DNA from: an uncultured Acidobacteriota bacterium | Lineage (GTDB): Bacteria; Actinomycetota; Acidimicrobiia; Spongiisociales; ZC4RG35 | DNA: 64,000 nt | Reading direction: 5' to 3' | NCBI GenBank assembly: GCA_963810465.1 | Contig: CAWENM010000002.1 | Coordinates: forward strand, 518,791-582,790 | The notes under the pieces: generated by a model | Databases searched by the model: none | What the model was told of the DNA's origin: nothing | The model's input: only the letters and a program-made list of their open reading frames with translations | Shown here: in pieces, positions 23,467 to 28,727 of the stretch | Layout of the letters: each line of letters starts with the position of its first letter | How positions within the stretch are numbered: the stretch's first letter is position 1 | Translations under genes and position numbers: made by a program

Positions 23467-25011
23467 CTAAAACACGATGGCGCTGGTGGTGTCGACGCGC
23501 GGATCGGGGTGAGTGGAGCGGGTGTCGCCGTCGATGTGGATCATCGAGACCGGGCCCCAACCGGGCTGGTGTTCGCCAACCTCTTCGATGAGGTGCCCGC
23601 GCCTCCGAAGATCGGCGACAGTGGTCGCGGCGACTCCCGGTTCCACGAGGAGTTGCCCTTCTGAGAACGGCCCGAATTCCCGGATGACCCATCGGGGCGC
23701 GTTCTGAGTCTCCTCGATCGATTGACCGGCCACGACGGCTCGGGCCGCGACTTGAGCCACGAGCTGCGGCTGGACCGCGCCACCTCTCGTCCCGATTACC
23801 CACTTCGGCTCCTGATCACGGGTCCAGAGGGTGGGGGAGAGGGTGTGGAGCGGGCGCTTCCCGGGCAGCAGCTCATTGGGGTGTCCGGGCGTCAGCGAGA
23901 AGCCGCTGCCACGGTTGTGGAGCAGGAAACCGCTCCGACCGGCTCCGAATGAGGACCCGGTCCCCTCGAAGTTCGATTGGATGATGGACACGGCCATCCC
24001 TTCCGCGTCGACAACGCACATATATGCGGTGCTCGACTCGGAGCCCATCTTCCGTGGCCAGACCCCGGTCCTTCCCCGGTCGACCGTGGCAGCGGCGCGG
24101 GCCAACCGGTCGCGATCGAGGAGAAGCTGCCCGGGAAGGGGTGCATGTTCGGGGTCGGCGACGAGATCGTCTCTCTCCCAGGCAAGCGAGCGAAACGCTT
24201 CGATCATCAGATGCCACCAGTCCGGGTCCGAGGGGTCCGACGGCGGTCCCAGCATCTCGAACACGGCGAGGGTGCCGGGTCCTAGATAACCCTGTGAGTT
24301 GGGAGGGATGGTCCAGGCGGCCATGTCCCCGACTGCACACGAGATCGGGGTCACCCATTCGGCGTGGGGCCGGGCCAGGTCGTCCCGGGTGATCAGACCG
24401 CCCAGCTCCTGCACGATGTCCTTGGCGGGGTCCCCGAGATAGAACGCTTCGCGCCCGTCCTCGCCAACAGCTTGGAGGGTGGCGGCCAGCGCCGGCCGTT
24501 TGACGAGGTCGCCCCGTGTCACCGGCTCTCCCTCCGGGTAGAACTCCCGGATCGCCTGCTGCCCGGCGTAGAACGACGTCTGCTCGAGAAAGGTGAGCGC
24601 CTGCTCGGTCGAGACTTCGAACCCGTCGGTCGCGTATTCCACGGCGGGGGCCAGGCACTCATCCAGCGGCAGGCGGCCTAGCTCGGAGGACAGGGCGGCC
24701 CAACCATCCACGCATCCCGGCGCGGTGACGGAGAGCATGTGGTCCCGCGGGATGGACCCGAGGCCTCGAACCGGCTCCCGGTCGGCATTGGAACCGGCTC
24801 GGCCGGAGGCATTGAGCGCCCGGGGCATGTCCCAACCCGGTCGATGCACCAGGGCGAAGAGATCGCCGCCGATGCCACATGTCTCCGGGGCGACGACTCC
24901 CTGGGCTGCGGTGGCGGCGATCGCTGCGTCCACCGCGTTCCCTCCCCCGATCAGCACGCGTTTGGCCGCCTCCGTGGAGAGATGATGTGGGGTGGAGACC
25001 GCCTGCGTCAG
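23467..25011 (-). CDS. ggt: Gamma-glutamyltransferase family protein
   Basis: GGNAVDAAIA, GIGGDLF, PPNSQG, nucleophile Thr in SSTAYMCVVD, LHNRG, PGKRPLHTL, DPR; start probably CTG 25011. Confidence 0.9.
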   Translation of the reverse strand: MTQAVSTPHHLSTEAAKRVLIGGGNAVDAAIAATAAQGVVAPETCGIGGDLFALVHRPGWDMPRALNASGRAGSNADREPVRGLGSIPRDHMLSVTAPGCVDGWAALSSELGRLPLDECLAPAVEYATDGFEVSTEQALTFLEQTSFYAGQQAIREFYPEGEPVTRGDLVKRPALAATLQAVGEDGREAFYLGDPAKDIVQELGGLITRDDLARPHAEWVTPISCAVGDMAAWTIPPNSQGYLGPGTLAVFEMLGPPSDPSDPDWWHLMIEAFRSLAWERDDLVADPEHAPLPGQLLLDRDRLARAAATVDRGRTGVWPRKMGSESSTAYMCVVDAEGMAVSIIQSNFEGTGSSFGAGRSGFLLHNRGSGFSLTPGHPNELLPGKRPLHTLSPTLWTRDQEPKWVIGTRGGAVQPQLVAQVAARAVVAGQSIEETQNAPRWVIREFGPFSEGQLLVEPGVAATTVADLRRRGHLIEEVGEHQPGWGPVSMIHIDGDTRSTHPDPRVDTTSAIVF

Positions 25012-25628
25012 GATGTCTTGAGGTCGGGGAGCACCCGATTCAACGCATCGAGGACGGAGCGGACCACCGCTCTCGACTCCTCGTCCTCGACATAGGCGCA
25101 CCCGATGAGGTGGCGCTCGCTCGCCTCGGTGACTACGACGATCTGTGCCACCGCCACTTTCCGGCTTCCCAGCGTCGGTATGTCCATGGACGAGACCGCA
25201 ACCGCCGACTCTTGGTGGATTGCCTGGCGGATCGCCTCGAGAGTCGCCTCGGCGATCTGACGGGACCGAGTCGTCATCGCCGCCGCACCTTTCGATGTTC
25301 CGGTGAACACCTCGTTTTGCCACCGCAAAGTCACAGAGACCTCGGCGCGGGAGCCATCCAGGAGCTCACTCACATCGACCAGCGCAGGGCGAAACCCCAT
25401 GTCGAGATCGGAGTCGGCGAGCTGGACCACGGAAACGACCCGCCGATCGATTTCTTCGCCGAAAAGTGCCTGGCTGAGGGACTGGACGTCTCTCACTACC
25501 TGCTTCGGCGGCTTGTTTCTCCGCGCCAGAACGTGGATTTCCTCGATGTGGCCGTTGCCGGCGACGATCCTCGCCGCTTCGACACCGTCGATGCGACAGA
25601 TCTTGTCCTGGAGGGCGATTAGGTCCAT
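25008..25628 (-). CDS. Conserved hypothetical protein divergent from the HD-GYP operon
   Basis: EEIHVLA..KPPKQVVRDVQS..IDRRVVSVVQ; C-terminal GxA..AVVRSVLDALNR reminiscent of the LeuA allosteric domain. Confidence 0.8.
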   Translation of the reverse strand: MDLIALQDKICRIDGVEAARIVAGNGHIEEIHVLARRNKPPKQVVRDVQSLSQALFGEEIDRRVVSVVQLADSDLDMGFRPALVDVSELLDGSRAEVSVTLRWQNEVFTGTSKGAAAMTTRSRQIAEATLEAIRQAIHQESAVAVSSMDIPTLGSRKVAVAQIVVVTEASERHLIGCAYVEDEESRAVVRSVLDALNRVLPDLKTS

Positions 25629-25806
25629 GACTGGTCAGCGTACAGTCAACGACGAAGGTCATCGGGATAACAGGACCCATTTCCTCTTGTTCAAGGTCGC
25701 GAGAGGCTCTAGATTGCGTCGGGCTGGAAGGCAGCTATTGGAAACGTGGGGCAGCCGAGGTCTCTGACCCGTCTGCCTGGCCTATGGCGGGCGAAGTCAG
25801 GGGCCT

Positions 25807-25836
25807 TTGACATGTAAAAGGTTCCCCGTCAAGACT
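25807..25836 (+). promoter_or_regulatory. Housekeeping-sigma promoter of the peptide/HD-GYP operon
   Basis: TTGACA (25807-12), 18-nt spacer, AAGACT (25831-36); predicted TSS about 25842. Confidence 0.55.
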
Positions 25837-25969
25837 TGCCGGGGAAAGAGGTGAGACCGGCGTCAGACGTCGGCCTTGTAACTGGACGCCCATCGAACCT
25901 AGCGGAGCGGATCGTCAACACCGGCACACAACGTCGGTGAAATACGGCACCAACAGGTGAGCGTTCTTG

Positions 25970-26047
25970 ATGAAGGCATTTCTGGCCCGTAATCGCATAT
26001 ATGTCGCGAGCCTGCAGATAGTGCTCGCCGGCGTAAGAATCGGCTGA
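25970..26047 (+). CDS. Unannotated 25-aa peptide MKAFLARNRIYVASLQIVLAGVRIG (putative signal precursor)
   Basis: SD AGGTGA at 25955-60, ATG 25970, TGA 26045-47; basic N-region, hydrophobic core, LAG motif; directly upstream of HD-GYP genes; codon usage atypical. Confidence 0.55.
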   Translation: MKAFLARNRIYVASLQIVLAGVRIG

Positions 26048-26098
26048 TATAGGCGCCGGCTCACCAAATCACGGTCACACATGTCGTCGAGGGGCTCA

Positions 26099-27490
26099 AT
26101 GAGGCTAGGTAGGAAAAGACCGTTGCGGGGATGGTTCGGACGTCTCCGCCCCACGGTGCAGCGTCGGTTGAAGATCGCTGTGCCTTACTCGCTCATGGGT
26201 CTGGCCGCCCTCATCGGGTCGTTTCTGATCTCCGACATGCCCAACTGGCTCTACTGGGCCCCGTTCGCATTTCTCTTCGTCCTGCTCGAGTTCTTTGCGG
26301 TCGAGGTCAACGATCGCATGTTCCAGTCCGCATCTGTGATGGTGGCAATGAGCGCAGGGGTGATTCTCGCCATGCAGCCGGGTTCCGACGCAATGTTCGG
26401 TCTGGCGTTGATGGGCGCCCTTGGCATGTTCACCCCGCTCGACTTGAAGGAAAAGCGGTGGTTCCAACCACTGGCGAATTTCGGGCAGATGGCCACCGCC
26501 GGCGCGGTCGCCGGCCTCATCTTCGATACGTATCTAGACGGTTTGGCAGTCGAAGCCGGCTCGCTGATCACGGTGCTGGCCGTGTCAGCGGCTGCGGCTC
26601 TGGCCTACGCCACAGTGCAAAACTTTCTGGTGCGTCACGCGGTGAAGGTCGTCTTTGGTCGGGACAATCTCGAGCCCTGGTCGCAGATGCCGGTTCTGTT
26701 CACCGGTGAGGTGGCCATGGGCTTGGTCGGAGGCCTGATCGGCGCCGCCTTTCTCATCGCCAACAGCGAGGCGATCATCGTTTTCATCGTCGGTGTCTTT
26801 GCCCTCGGCCACATGTGGCTCTATGCCTTCGCCCAACTGCGTGACGCGCACATCGGGTCGATCCGGGGCTTCGTCAAGACACTGGAGGCCAAGGACATGT
26901 ACACCCGCGGCCATACCGAGCGCGTGGCGTTCTTCGCTCAGATGATTGGTGAGGAGATGGGCTTCACGGGCACCCAGCTCGAGACCGTGCGTTGGGCGGC
27001 CCTGATCCATGACCTGGGCAAGCTGGCGGTCCCTACCGAGCTAATCCGGAAGAGGGGCCGGCTCGATGAGGACGAGTACGCCGAGATGAAAGCTCACGCC
27101 CAACTCGTCGAGGAGATCCTCGCCGAGGTGGACTTTCTCCAGCCCATGGTCGAGATCGCTTCCGGCCATCACAGCAACTTCGACGGCAGCGGCTACGGGG
27201 GGAGTGGGCACAGCCAGGGCGAGGCCCCCCGCATCGAAGCCTGCATCGTTGCCGCCGCCGATGCCTTCGACGCCATGACTTCGGCACGTTCCTACCGGAT
27301 GGCCCTCTCCCAGCAATACGCCATTTCCGAGCTGAGACGCAACTCGGGCGCCCAGTTCCACCCAGCGGTCGTCGACGCCTTCGAGCGGGCATTGACCAAG
27401 ACCGGGCGTCGCTGGGGTGCGCCGCATGTCAACGACGAGGAGATGGCCCGACGTCTCGCCGAGGAGCCGGAGCTGACCCTCCGTGGCTAG
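26099..27490 (+). CDS. Membrane-bound HD-GYP-type cyclic dinucleotide phosphodiesterase
   Basis: About 7-8 TM N-terminus; KDMYTRGHTERV, LIHDLGK, GHHSNFDGSGYG, ADAFDAMTSARSYR, GAQFHP; SD GAGGGG before ATG 26099. Confidence 0.9.
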   Translation: MRLGRKRPLRGWFGRLRPTVQRRLKIAVPYSLMGLAALIGSFLISDMPNWLYWAPFAFLFVLLEFFAVEVNDRMFQSASVMVAMSAGVILAMQPGSDAMFGLALMGALGMFTPLDLKEKRWFQPLANFGQMATAGAVAGLIFDTYLDGLAVEAGSLITVLAVSAAAALAYATVQNFLVRHAVKVVFGRDNLEPWSQMPVLFTGEVAMGLVGGLIGAAFLIANSEAIIVFIVGVFALGHMWLYAFAQLRDAHIGSIRGFVKTLEAKDMYTRGHTERVAFFAQMIGEEMGFTGTQLETVRWAALIHDLGKLAVPTELIRKRGRLDEDEYAEMKAHAQLVEEILAEVDFLQPMVEIASGHHSNFDGSGYGGSGHSQGEAPRIEACIVAAADAFDAMTSARSYRMALSQQYAISELRRNSGAQFHPAVVDAFERALTKTGRRWGAPHVNDEEMARRLAEEPELTLRG

Positions 27491-28727
27491 CTGGAGCCCA
27501 CGCGCCCTGTCGATTGTCTCCTGGCTCTATGTCATCGTCATCGCCGGTGTCGGTCTCTACGCGGCCACACTCGCCACGAGCGACTCGATGACACTGCTGG
27601 TCGCGGTGACCGCGCTGGTGCTGGCCTCGATGATCGGGGTCGCTGCCTCCAACACGGGAAATCGTTTCACAGTCGGTCTGGCGGTAGCTGCGGCGGTGCC
27701 CCTCGTGCTCGGCTCGCCGGAGAGCGTGGACCTGGCCGGTTGTTTCGCCGTTTACGGGCTGGGACTCGCCATCGTCTGGGCCCTTCGTTACTCACGCGGA
27801 GAGAAGCACACCGATCTCCTTCCCACGCTGGTGCGACGGTTCGCCGGATATTGCGTTTACGCCACCGTGTACTCCGCTCTAAGGGTTGGGCCGTTCGCAG
27901 AACTGAGCGGAGGCTGGGAGGACTTGTTCCCATTCGTGGTGGCGCTCATCGCCTGGATCGCGGTCGAGGTGTTCGCCCGCGCCATGCTGGTCGTCGGAAA
28001 GCGCGAGGTCTCCCGGACCTATCTGGCCCGTTCTCTGCTCCACGATCTCAATGTCTTCCTGGGTCTGGCCCTGACCGGCGGCCTGTTCGGGGAGCTCTGG
28101 CCGGTTCTGAGTTGGTGGGCCCTCCCCATCGCCCTCCTCCCCTACTCCTTCGCCCATCTCGCCTTCAAGCGCTTCCAGGAGACAAAGATCACCTACAAAC
28201 AGACCATCCGGGCCCTCGCCCGTATCCCCGAGGTCTCCGGCCTCGGGGTCGATGGCCATGCCGACCGGACTACGGAGCTCGCCTCGGCCATCGCCAAGGA
28301 GATCGGGCTGGGCCCGGTCCAGGTGGAGGACGTGGAGTACGCCGGGCTGATGCACGACATCGGGCGGGTCAGCCTCAATGAGCCCCAGATCTTGCGCATG
28401 GGCTACAGCGACACCGACATCGCACGCTGGAGCTCGGAGATCATCGCCGAGTCGCCGTATCTGAGCCGGGTGGCGACTCATGTTCGTCATCAATACGAGC
28501 CGTATCGCAAACCCGGCGAGCAGACAGACCCCGACGTCTCCGTCGTGTCGCGGATCATCAAGGTTGCCGCTGCTTACGACTGGCAGGTGCATTTGGAGGG
28601 TCTTTCCCCGCTTCAGGCCCTCGAGATCCTCCACACCGGTGCTGCCTACGACTACGACCCTGAAGTCGTCGCATCTCTACGCCGGTTGCTGGAGAGCCGC
28701 GGCGTTCTTACGCCGGTCCGGGTCTGA
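27483..28727 (+). CDS. Membrane protein with degenerate HD-GYP domain
   Basis: Multi-TM N-terminus; GHADRT and MHDIGR retained, but HHE/GYP region reads RHQYEPY and ADxFD reads AAAYD. Confidence 0.85.
   Translation: MASWSPRALSIVSWLYVIVIAGVGLYAATLATSDSMTLLVAVTALVLASMIGVAASNTGNRFTVGLAVAAAVPLVLGSPESVDLAGCFAVYGLGLAIVWALRYSRGEKHTDLLPTLVRRFAGYCVYATVYSALRVGPFAELSGGWEDLFPFVVALIAWIAVEVFARAMLVVGKREVSRTYLARSLLHDLNVFLGLALTGGLFGELWPVLSWWALPIALLPYSFAHLAFKRFQETKITYKQTIRALARIPEVSGLGVDGHADRTTELASAIAKEIGLGPVQVEDVEYAGLMHDIGRVSLNEPQILRMGYSDTDIARWSSEIIAESPYLSRVATHVRHQYEPYRKPGEQTDPDVSVVSRIIKVAAAYDWQVHLEGLSPLQALEILHTGAAYDYDPEVVASLRRLLESRGVLTPVRV

Follow-up and report, generated by a model that had tools for sequence, protein, structure and literature searches.

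Small open reading frame in the leader of an HD-GYP-family operon

We analyzed a stretch of 64,000 nucleotides (nt) from an uncultured bacterium placed in the Actinomycetota (contig CAWENM010000002.1 of assembly GCA_963810465.1), hereafter the window, and focused on a small open reading frame (ORF) at 25970..26047 of its plus strand, which encodes MKAFLARNRIYVASLQIVLAGVRIG in 25 codons followed by TGA. The ORF is located in a structured leader RNA, with its stop 51 nt upstream of the ATG (26099) of a gene for a membrane protein of the HD-GYP family. An AGGTGA resembling a Shine-Dalgarno (SD) sequence stands at 25955-25960, 9 nt upstream of the ORF start at 25970, and CAGGTGAGCG around this SD is invariant in the 24 aligned rows of the window's genus. 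The coordinates of all features are collected in Table 1.

An earlier note on this DNA had described the ORF as a nearly pure signal peptide ending in a Cys-less lipobox (LAG|V), cleavage at which would release the tetrapeptide VRIG. Its reading of the letters was verified in the sequence, including the coordinates and translation, the AGGTGA 9 nt upstream, the GC content of 42/78 and the rare codons (ATA twice, and AGA). The basic n-region is likewise present, with K2 and R7 in the window and K/R at positions 2, 4 and 7 in relatives, and the terminal residues before TGA are R-I-G. What stands of the "mostly hydrophobic core" is a partly hydrophobic middle, which in the window is interrupted by N, R, Y and Q, and an uninterrupted h-region of ~10-15 residues is therefore absent. 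By length the ORF is within chance expectation: the 452-nt intergenic stretch holds three plus-strand ORFs of at least 25 codons, and its shuffles gave a mean of 2.74 with P(at least 1)=0.99. The significance of the ORF thus derives only from comparison with its relatives.

A 29-codon ORF family across the order

The ORF family was traced through one order of the Acidimicrobiia, from which 401 genomes were sampled. The orthologue of the HD-GYP membrane domain was found in 284 of them, and 93 upstream regions from other genera and families of the order were inspected. An ORF of 28-29 codons was found in the same place at 69 of the 93 loci, with an SD, an ATG, GTG or TTG start and the ending [KR]-[IV]-G-stop; a further six carried the same ORF with a variant ending (75/93 when canonical and variant endings are taken together), 15 held eroded copies, and three, including one 154-nt contig stub, had nothing recognizable. 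Members of the family share the strand of the membrane HD-GYP-family gene, precede it by 35-170 nt and have their own SD, an arrangement that the window ORF fits.

The intact copies bear a clear coding signature. Tabulated over 63 distinct intact sequences, the minority counts for the three codon positions were 501/355/843, A24 and G29 were invariant with each encoded by all four of its codons, and K/R27 was encoded by all eight codons. The majority consensus, MKxxLVRIxAxAxSLAALIxAGSASxKIG, consists of a basic N-terminal end, ~14 hydrophobic residues, a small-residue c-region (A21-G22-S/A23-A24) and then five residues. Judged from these residues, the intact relatives have the anatomy of a signal peptide almost without passenger, or of a single N-in/C-out helix. 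All three stop codons occurred among 104 distinct contexts, with UGA in 77 of them; the penultimate residue was I/V in 101 and L in three, and the last residue was G in 104/104, residue counts for which the detection pattern itself required these residue classes.

A profile of the family gave one strong match per genome, or two in G040 and G213, with E <1e-5 inside the order only, and its sole match in the window's own genome was the ORF described here (E 7.4e-5). In the second copies of G040 and G029, the ORF is followed after 35 nt by a gene with the same membrane domain. Out of 1.84 billion representative proteins, 46 matched the family at E ≤1e-3; each match runs to the last residue of its protein, and the proteins are exactly 29 amino acids (aa) long in 15 cases and never longer than 152 aa. 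The sole name found for such proteins was 'hypothetical protein', attached to 10 of the 15 members listed from four of the eight clusters looked up. Searches of Pfam and NCBIfam with seven peptides returned no family (DUF4148 at E 0.42 was dismissed), and no description of the ORF family or its leader was found in the literature within open-access and bioRxiv coverage. ORFs this small are almost never annotated, and neither peptide nor leader has a model in Pfam, NCBIfam or Rfam; the 29-codon leader-ORF family and its leader, undescribed before, are newly defined here.

Compared with the 28-29 codons and intact hydrophobic body of the family, the window ORF has 25 codons and an eroded core, and it was therefore filed as a degenerate member. 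Its alignment to the family leaves a 4-residue gap at the small-residue region (G22-S23-A24), which includes the invariant Ala, and the small residues at −3/−1 of a cleavage site are missing from the window copy at this gap. In annotation, the window ORF is best entered as a degenerate leader ORF and not as a lipoprotein-like signal peptide.

Erosion of the ORF body and retention of its end within the genus

Of the 31 genomes of the window's genus, 30 keep the intergenic spacer at 74-99% nt identity, the one without it being 61% complete, and the position and stop of the ORF, mostly with its start and frame as well, recur in the same number. The 25-codon ATG/GTG frame is kept in 22 of these 30 genomes; the start lies one codon later in one, is replaced by AAG in another, and a 2-nt deletion shifts the frame in six, such that start or frame is lost in seven genomes in total. 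SD and ATG are retained in 22-23 of the 30. The earlier note had proposed to give the ORF up if start, stop and frame were not conserved in relatives. We found the stop in 30/30 genus genomes, start and frame in 23/30, and the ORF kept across families, so that this condition does not speak against the ORF.

The end of the ORF differs from the rest in how it varies. K/R-I-G-TGA terminates it in all 30 genomes, and the third-last codon is one of seven (AGA, AAA, CGG, CGA, AGG, CGT, AAG), while the codon preceding it varies freely. That all seven lie inside the K/R set indicates selection on the amino acid at this single position; by our own rough estimate, the chance of K/R-only variation under neutrality is of the order of 1%. 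When the genus alignment was inspected by eye, without a count, no pairing partner covarying with the K/R codon was seen.

Over the whole ORF, variability by codon position was 54/61/45, that is, without wobble excess (19 of the 24 aligned rows, the five frameshifted rows being dropped), compared with 66/45/140 at the start of the HD-GYP-family gene and 40/17/145 in the divergent gene by the same measure. Similarly, the 22 in-frame genus ORFs (16 distinct) had a ratio of nonsynonymous to synonymous differences (pN/pS) of 1.14 with a pS of 0.152, and the HD-GYP-family gene of the same genomes had a pN/pS of 0.30 with a pS of 0.527 over its first 100 alignable codons. As a whole, the ORF in the genus lacks the variation pattern of coding DNA and bears no sign of protein-level selection. 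In the genus copies, the residues N, R, H, E and D occur within the core. The hydropathy of the best 15-residue segment is 0.45-1.79 over the genus rows scored, against 1.6-2.6 in intact copies; rows of the window's clade span 1.46-1.79, the copy in the window itself being outside the scored set. The blocks that survive in the genus, an N-terminal MKA-LAR, VASL and the C-terminal RIG, are invariant as nucleotides, wobble positions included.

A family-level tree of the HD-GYP protein with 63 rows requires at least 5-6 changes between the intact and eroded states, and in it the window's genus forms one eroded clade of 25 rows that is sister to an intact clade. All 38 eroded rows carry [KR]-[IL]-G-stop at the usual place, a retention that is partly by construction since detection of eroded copies needed the pattern [KRQ][VILM]G-stop; just two of the 63 tree rows lack the pattern, namely L202, whose ORF is truncated, and L252, which is unreliable and sits on a very long branch. 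Beside the 3′ strand of H1, a long-range helix of the leader described below, three lineages moreover carry a duplicated terminal block (..K/R-I-G-stop): L112 and L118 have a ~26-nt insertion, whose new 8-codon ORF overlaps the old stop as TGATG, L125 has a tandem NTKIG repeat, and L239 and L243 have a tandem repeat of ~20 nt. Retention and duplication of the end while the body is lost indicate that selection keeps the last three codons and the stop beside the helix. These at least five independent erosions of the body, which keep the last three codons and stop, offer a comparative handle for separating a role of the product from a role of translation in cis. Genomes flagged as unpublished (G018, G027, G038, G042 and G043) are among the rows counted, and no conclusion depends on them alone.

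Conserved helices of the leader RNA

The leader RNA, about 340 nt long, is arranged from 5′ to 3′ as a UUGACA..GAAGG block, the hairpin HP1, a purine-rich strand ending in a CCCGG-like sequence, the block AGCGRAGCGRA, the hairpin HP2, the SD and ORF, and a pyrimidine-rich strand that complements the purine-rich one. In the genus, its consensus fold has −214.7 kcal/mol on the plus strand vs −182.8 kcal/mol on the minus strand, and the plus strand is favored by G-U pairs as well as by fold energies. The single-sequence minimum free energy (MFE) of the leader is −153.4 (z −2.68), and H1 is chosen by the MFE fold too.

In the window, H1 pairs 25850-25864 with 26052-26065, and an extension pairs 25869-75 with 26042-48, covering the Gly codon and the stop; across leaders the helix is 14-21 base pairs (bp) long. 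Its 3′ strand begins 1-10 nt after the ORF stop in 41 of 43 diverse leaders, and 4 nt after it in the window. In a family-level alignment of 39 sequences, 90.0% of the H1 cells are paired, vs 23-49% after the partner has been shifted by 1-3 columns. Both sides have changed in 14 of 28 pairs, which was reached by 0/500 shuffles, and the covariation score is 0.252 vs 0.172 for shuffles. Order-wide duplexes have −31.5 kcal/mol for cognate strands, −22.3 for non-cognate and −18.3 for shuffled ones, and in the broader set of 77 leaders the cognate and non-cognate values are −42.6 vs −33.3 kcal/mol. The repeat GCCGGCG (26027-33) / CGCCGGC (26054-60) that the earlier note had seen across the stop is present but does not form a conserved pairing; its 3′ arm pairs with 25857-25864, and given the support for H1, the local repeat is better read as one H1 arm.

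HP1 has four pairs in the family-level consensus, and its stem sequences differ in other families (seen, not counted). HP2 has a mean z of −2.14 over the 77 leaders, whose stems are quite different, and five of its seven pairs show compensatory changes. RNAalifold returned 0 pairs on the order-wide MAFFT alignment because the covarying stems are out of register in it, and the helices were evaluated instead by per-sequence duplexes and the family-level alignment. The family-level consensus fold also pairs ACAUGU, an invariant part of the UUGACAUGU block (25806-25814), with the ORF SD AGGUG (25955-25959); this pairing shows no covariation, and other families carry UUGACAAC.

A covariance model of the 5′ half of the leader (R1) had one match in the window's genome and nothing else at E ≤1. 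In a class-wide sample of 151 genomes, R1 matched 16 genomes once each and none outside the order; the 16 are the window's own genome, 13 of the 15 other genomes of family f1, and two weak matches in other families of the order. Comparison of coordinates with the profile matches placed the R1 match just 5′ of the ORF in G086, G076, G120 and G034, and the weak match in G064, on another contig than that genome's ORF, is probably spurious. Rfam 15 had 0 matches at E ≤1 within 25000-27000 and 0 at the gathering score in the whole window, and on the loci of 20 relatives it gave nothing relevant, the lone row being IRES_Bip at E 0.94 in L087.

Contigs from RNA libraries of at least three studies cover 25736-26074, i.e. 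the leader and ORF, which is thus present in RNA. They start at 25733-25746 and none lies upstream, which is a hint only. Their depth is 25-490 over the leader vs 2-19 over the coding region, figures that cannot rank the parts of a gene, and contig ends are possibly graph breaks at variant sites; we therefore draw no conclusion on attenuation or processing from them. Three RNA libraries, which come from at least two studies, contained contigs of ~97 nt with depth 120-470 and common ends at 25850/51 and 25946-48, and adapter-flanked contig ends were found at 25746, 25761, 26010, ~26045 and 26074; such ends may mark discrete RNA termini or may be assembly-graph breaks.

Proposed termination beside H1 and competing readings

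The reading that we favor, and to which we give about an even chance, is that the window ORF is an eroded copy of a 29-codon leader gene, which now acts in cis through translation and termination beside H1. H1 closes the ORF into a loop, with the stop 4 nt 5′ of the H1 3′ strand, and in this model a ribosome reaching the stop at 26045 would have to melt the extension and the first H1 pairs. The conserved end, with its beta-branched penultimate Ile and terminal Gly, may slow release, by analogy with the penultimate Ile of the Escherichia coli leader peptide PepNL (see below), and slowed termination would decide what becomes of the leader RNA and how strongly the downstream HD-GYP-family genes are expressed. 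Homology, coding signature, erosion, RNA pairing and the occurrence of the leader in RNA libraries are established by the comparisons above; from them we infer that the ORF is translated in the genus, that ribosomes pause at its stop and that regulation results. Simple SD unmasking was rejected as the mechanism, since the HD-GYP SD/AUG was predicted to stay as open as before.

Several results weigh against termination in cis. A ribosome parked on the ORF stop left the predicted accessibility of the HD-GYP SD/AUG unchanged (0.43 vs 0.41), with accessibility going up in five and down in 13 of 62 leaders. The SD of the ORF itself shows no greater openness than the remainder of the leader (0.35 vs 0.36), and the tract after the stop is mildly C-rich at most (C 0.327, G 0.271), a Rho site not being evident in it. 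In six of the 30 genus genomes, the frame of the motif offers just an internal start (GTG, TTG or ATG). The 9 nt ATCGGCTGA hardly vary as nucleotides within family f1, which indicates that part of the conservation is at the RNA level. The motif itself has changed in two families: f11 ends in F-[ST]-[VI]-G, with S/T for K/R (L088, L152, L153 and L162), and f3 ends in F-R-I, the terminal Gly being gone (L086 and L030). Both endings agree better with a peptide ligand that co-evolves with its partner than with a motif directed at the ribosome. The partly built-in retention of the end among eroded rows, noted above, belongs to the same side.

A possible, if unlikely, alternative is that the ORF is a fossil within an RNA element, untranslated in the genus, with the leader serving as a structured RNA sensor or transcript stabilizer and the frame persisting via RNA constraint. 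Consistent with this, the synonymous sites of the ORF are 3.5x more conserved than those of the neighboring gene while its pN/pS is above 1, wobble excess is absent, start or frame is lost in seven genomes, and the helices are strongly supported. A purely RNA-level constraint is opposed by the third-last codon, which stays K/R in 30/30 genomes through seven codons beside a freely varying one and with no covarying partner seen, by the retention of SD and ATG in most genomes, and by the mini-ORFs with the same terminal motif that duplication re-created in other lineages.

Alternatively, the 25-residue product could be a working small protein that acts in trans, for instance by binding the adjacent HD-GYP-family membrane domain, which we consider unlikely for the window. 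The ORF and the membrane-domain gene do travel and duplicate together, as in the second copies of G040 and G029; intact peptides are conserved over their full length with small residues spaced like those of helix-packing motifs, and the blocks MKA-LAR, VASL and RIG survive in the genus. However, these blocks are invariant at the nucleotide level, the pN/pS of the ORF gives no sign of selection on a product, charged residues interrupt the core, and six of 30 genomes are frameshifted. For the intact relatives the balance is different: a role of the product, whether as a partner in the membrane or as an exported pentapeptide, is no less likely than a role in cis, and both may coexist. In one form of such a role, which we regard as quite unlikely, cleavage after the invariant Ala of the intact relatives would free [SN]-x-[KR]-[IV]-G extracellularly, as a pheromone sensed by the HD-GYP-family membrane domain, the ORF acting in cis as well. 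If so, a peptide pheromone would be wired directly into the turnover of cyclic di-GMP (c-di-GMP) in Actinomycetota, and the window's genus would be a natural experiment in which the signal is lost and the cis function kept.

The signal peptide with a Cys-less lipobox, releasing VRIG, is very improbable. The lipobox motif is L-[AS]-[GA]-C, with the Cys at +1 invariant; in the window this position is Val, and in none of the 63 distinct intact sequences does Cys follow A-G; the L-A-G taken for a lipobox is the part of the A-G-[SA]-A region that the 4-residue gap has left. The A-x-A-type site of the family also falls within this gap. The basic N-terminal end and partly hydrophobic middle do recall a signal peptide, and the relatives resemble true ones, so that the description as a nearly pure signal peptide is true by descent, of the intact relatives, whereas in the window the core and the cleavage-type site are gone. 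Together, the charged and polar core of low hydropathy, the pN/pS and the even variability over codon positions, i.e. a body without protein-level selection, make export and release of VRIG unlikely in the genus. The window peptide is not a lipoprotein, and as far as the sequence tells it is unlikely to be an exported signal peptide; the earlier interpretation is thus partly supported, as to a conserved small ORF with its own SD and a signal-peptide-like ancestry. A chance ORF in a GC-rich spacer, for which its expected length would speak, has a practically negligible probability, given the homology to a coding family, the fixed position relative to helix and gene, and the single profile match in the genome.

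Comparison with known systems

By analogy, the window ORF would work most like the leaders that arrest ribosomes at a stop codon, whereas its ancestors resemble pheromone precursors or small membrane regulators. TnaC, the leader ORF of the tna operon of E. coli, arrests ribosomes at its own stop codon. PepNL, the leader of E. coli pepN, is a 14-codon ORF that arrests at its UGA stop, with stem-loops surrounding the stop and an essential penultimate Ile13 that blocks RF2, and its authors state that simple SD unmasking does not explain the link to the downstream gene (PMC11890864). As with PepNL and TnaC, the ORF described here is short (14-29 codons) and lies 5′ of a regulated gene; as with PepNL, it has a conserved penultimate Ile, the stop is mostly UGA (77/104 contexts), RNA stems lie around it, and simple SD unmasking fails to explain the downstream link. 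In contrast to PepNL, for which arrest is known, arrest here is a supposition; the ORF has twice the length and Gly as its final residue, all three stops are used, in most lineages it is hydrophobic, signal-peptide-like and conserved over its full length, two families have changed the motif, and a long-range helix encloses it in place of local stem-loops.

The Phr peptides of Bacillus and the short hydrophobic peptides (SHP) of streptococci are secreted pheromone precursors of Gram-positive bacteria. Their resemblance to the 29-codon family lies in a small precursor gene beside a presumed receptor or effector and in a basic N-terminal end, a hydrophobic segment and a conserved basic C-terminal piece. 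However, they have a pro-region or dedicated exporters and cytoplasmic regulators as receptors, while here five residues follow the putative cleavage site, the neighbor is a membrane enzyme, and the window copy lacks a hydrophobic core.

A family of small membrane proteins encoded behind c-di-GMP riboswitches is described for Clostridioides difficile (PMC13724677). Small membrane-type proteins, a structured leader RNA and a c-di-GMP circuit are common to both systems as described; the C. difficile family belongs to another phylum and follows class I c-di-GMP riboswitches, whereas the leader here matches no Rfam family and precedes a gene that itself belongs to the c-di-GMP phosphodiesterase type. 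MgrB, AcrZ and KdpF exemplify small regulators of membrane sensors and transporters that consist of a single helix; they share with the 29-codon family their length, the single hydrophobic helix and a gene adjoining that of the partner. Unlike it, their genes are not known to lie within a conserved long-range RNA helix; the window copy is in addition eroded, and partner binding is hypothetical here. The family thereby links micro-proteins, leader-peptide control and c-di-GMP signaling, which are usually studied apart, in an uncultured lineage that is widespread in soil and water.

Neighboring genes and other features

Table 1. Features of the leader region and its neighboring genes in the window.
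Feature	Coordinates	Strand	Basis or remark
Small ORF	25970..26047	+	Eroded copy of the 29-codon family; 25 codons and TGA; profile E 7.4e-5
Shine-Dalgarno-like AGGTGA	25955..25960	+	GGTGA or GGAGG 8-12 nt 5′ of the start in relatives
Structured leader RNA of the HD-GYP-family operon, holding the small ORF	25736..26098	+	Conservation, fold, RNA-library contigs
Candidate promoter: TTGTTC (25687-92), 17-nt spacer, TAGATT (25710-15)	25687..25715	+	Hexamers conserved in the genus, spacer varies
Hairpin HP1 (CCCCG / CGGGG), 3′ of the conserved UUGACAUGU..AAGG block	25824..25844	+	Pairs kept in 30/30 genus rows
H1 5′ strand: GGUGAG-A-CCGGCGUC, plus extension GUCGGCC	25850..25875	+	Pairing tests, covariation
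Invariant single-stranded block AGCGGAGCGGA	25901..25911	+	AGCGRAGCGRA order-wide; in 77 distinct leaders; (nearly) invariant in alignments
Hairpin HP2, directly 3′ of the invariant block	25919..25939	+	Hairpin of at least 5 bp in 77/77 distinct leaders
H1 3′ strand: extension GGCUGAU over Gly codon and stop; CGCCGGCUCACC starts 4 nt after the stop	26042..26065	+	
Membrane HD-GYP-family gene	26099..27490 (alternative ATG 26081)	+	Pfam HD_5, 5.4e-29
Second HD_5 paralogue, more divergent	27483..28727	+	HD_5 3.6e-10; overlaps the first gene by 8 nt
Divergent gene, 206 aa, no known family	25008..25628	−	Coding signature 40/17/145

The product of the HD-GYP-family gene consists of an N-terminal, all-helical membrane domain of ~250 residues and an HD_5 domain. 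In the AlphaFold2 (AF2) model, the membrane domain has a pLDDT of 81, a pTM of 0.80 and 10 DSSP helices. HD is found at residues 304-305, and DGSGYG stands at the position that is GYP in the canonical HD-GYP motif. A Foldseek search of the PDB with the model of the N-domain (md324230f2190, from the relative L207) gave no match at E ≤0.001. The best rows were S-components of energy-coupling factor (ECF) transporters, 4huq_S (E 0.14, TM 0.54 by target length) and 4z7f_C, and this likeness of the model is a weak hint that the N-domain might be a small-molecule-binding membrane module. The second HD_5 paralogue lacks the motif and has a weaker HD_5 match, and may therefore be degenerate and non-catalytic. 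In two genomes the HD-GYP orthologue was read through one in-frame stop (L011 of G008, TAA; L025 of G028, TGA), which could reflect sequencing error, a broken gene or recoding.

As for the start of the transcript, a promoter at the candidate hexamers is a weak inference, and a consensus scan for sigma-70 promoters and terminators, which gave 0 sites, speaks against the call.

On the minus strand, the 206-aa gene matched no Pfam or NCBIfam family, and an Atlas look-up gave just hypothetical proteins. Its ORF overlaps by ~315 nt the 618-aa ORF of a gamma-glutamyltranspeptidase (23467-25323, minus strand), whose Pfam match starts at residue 122, so that the true start of the latter is probably further downstream. 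In the distant relatives L266 and L267, a gene with a similar N-terminus is likewise found divergent and upstream of the leader, as minus-strand ORFs.

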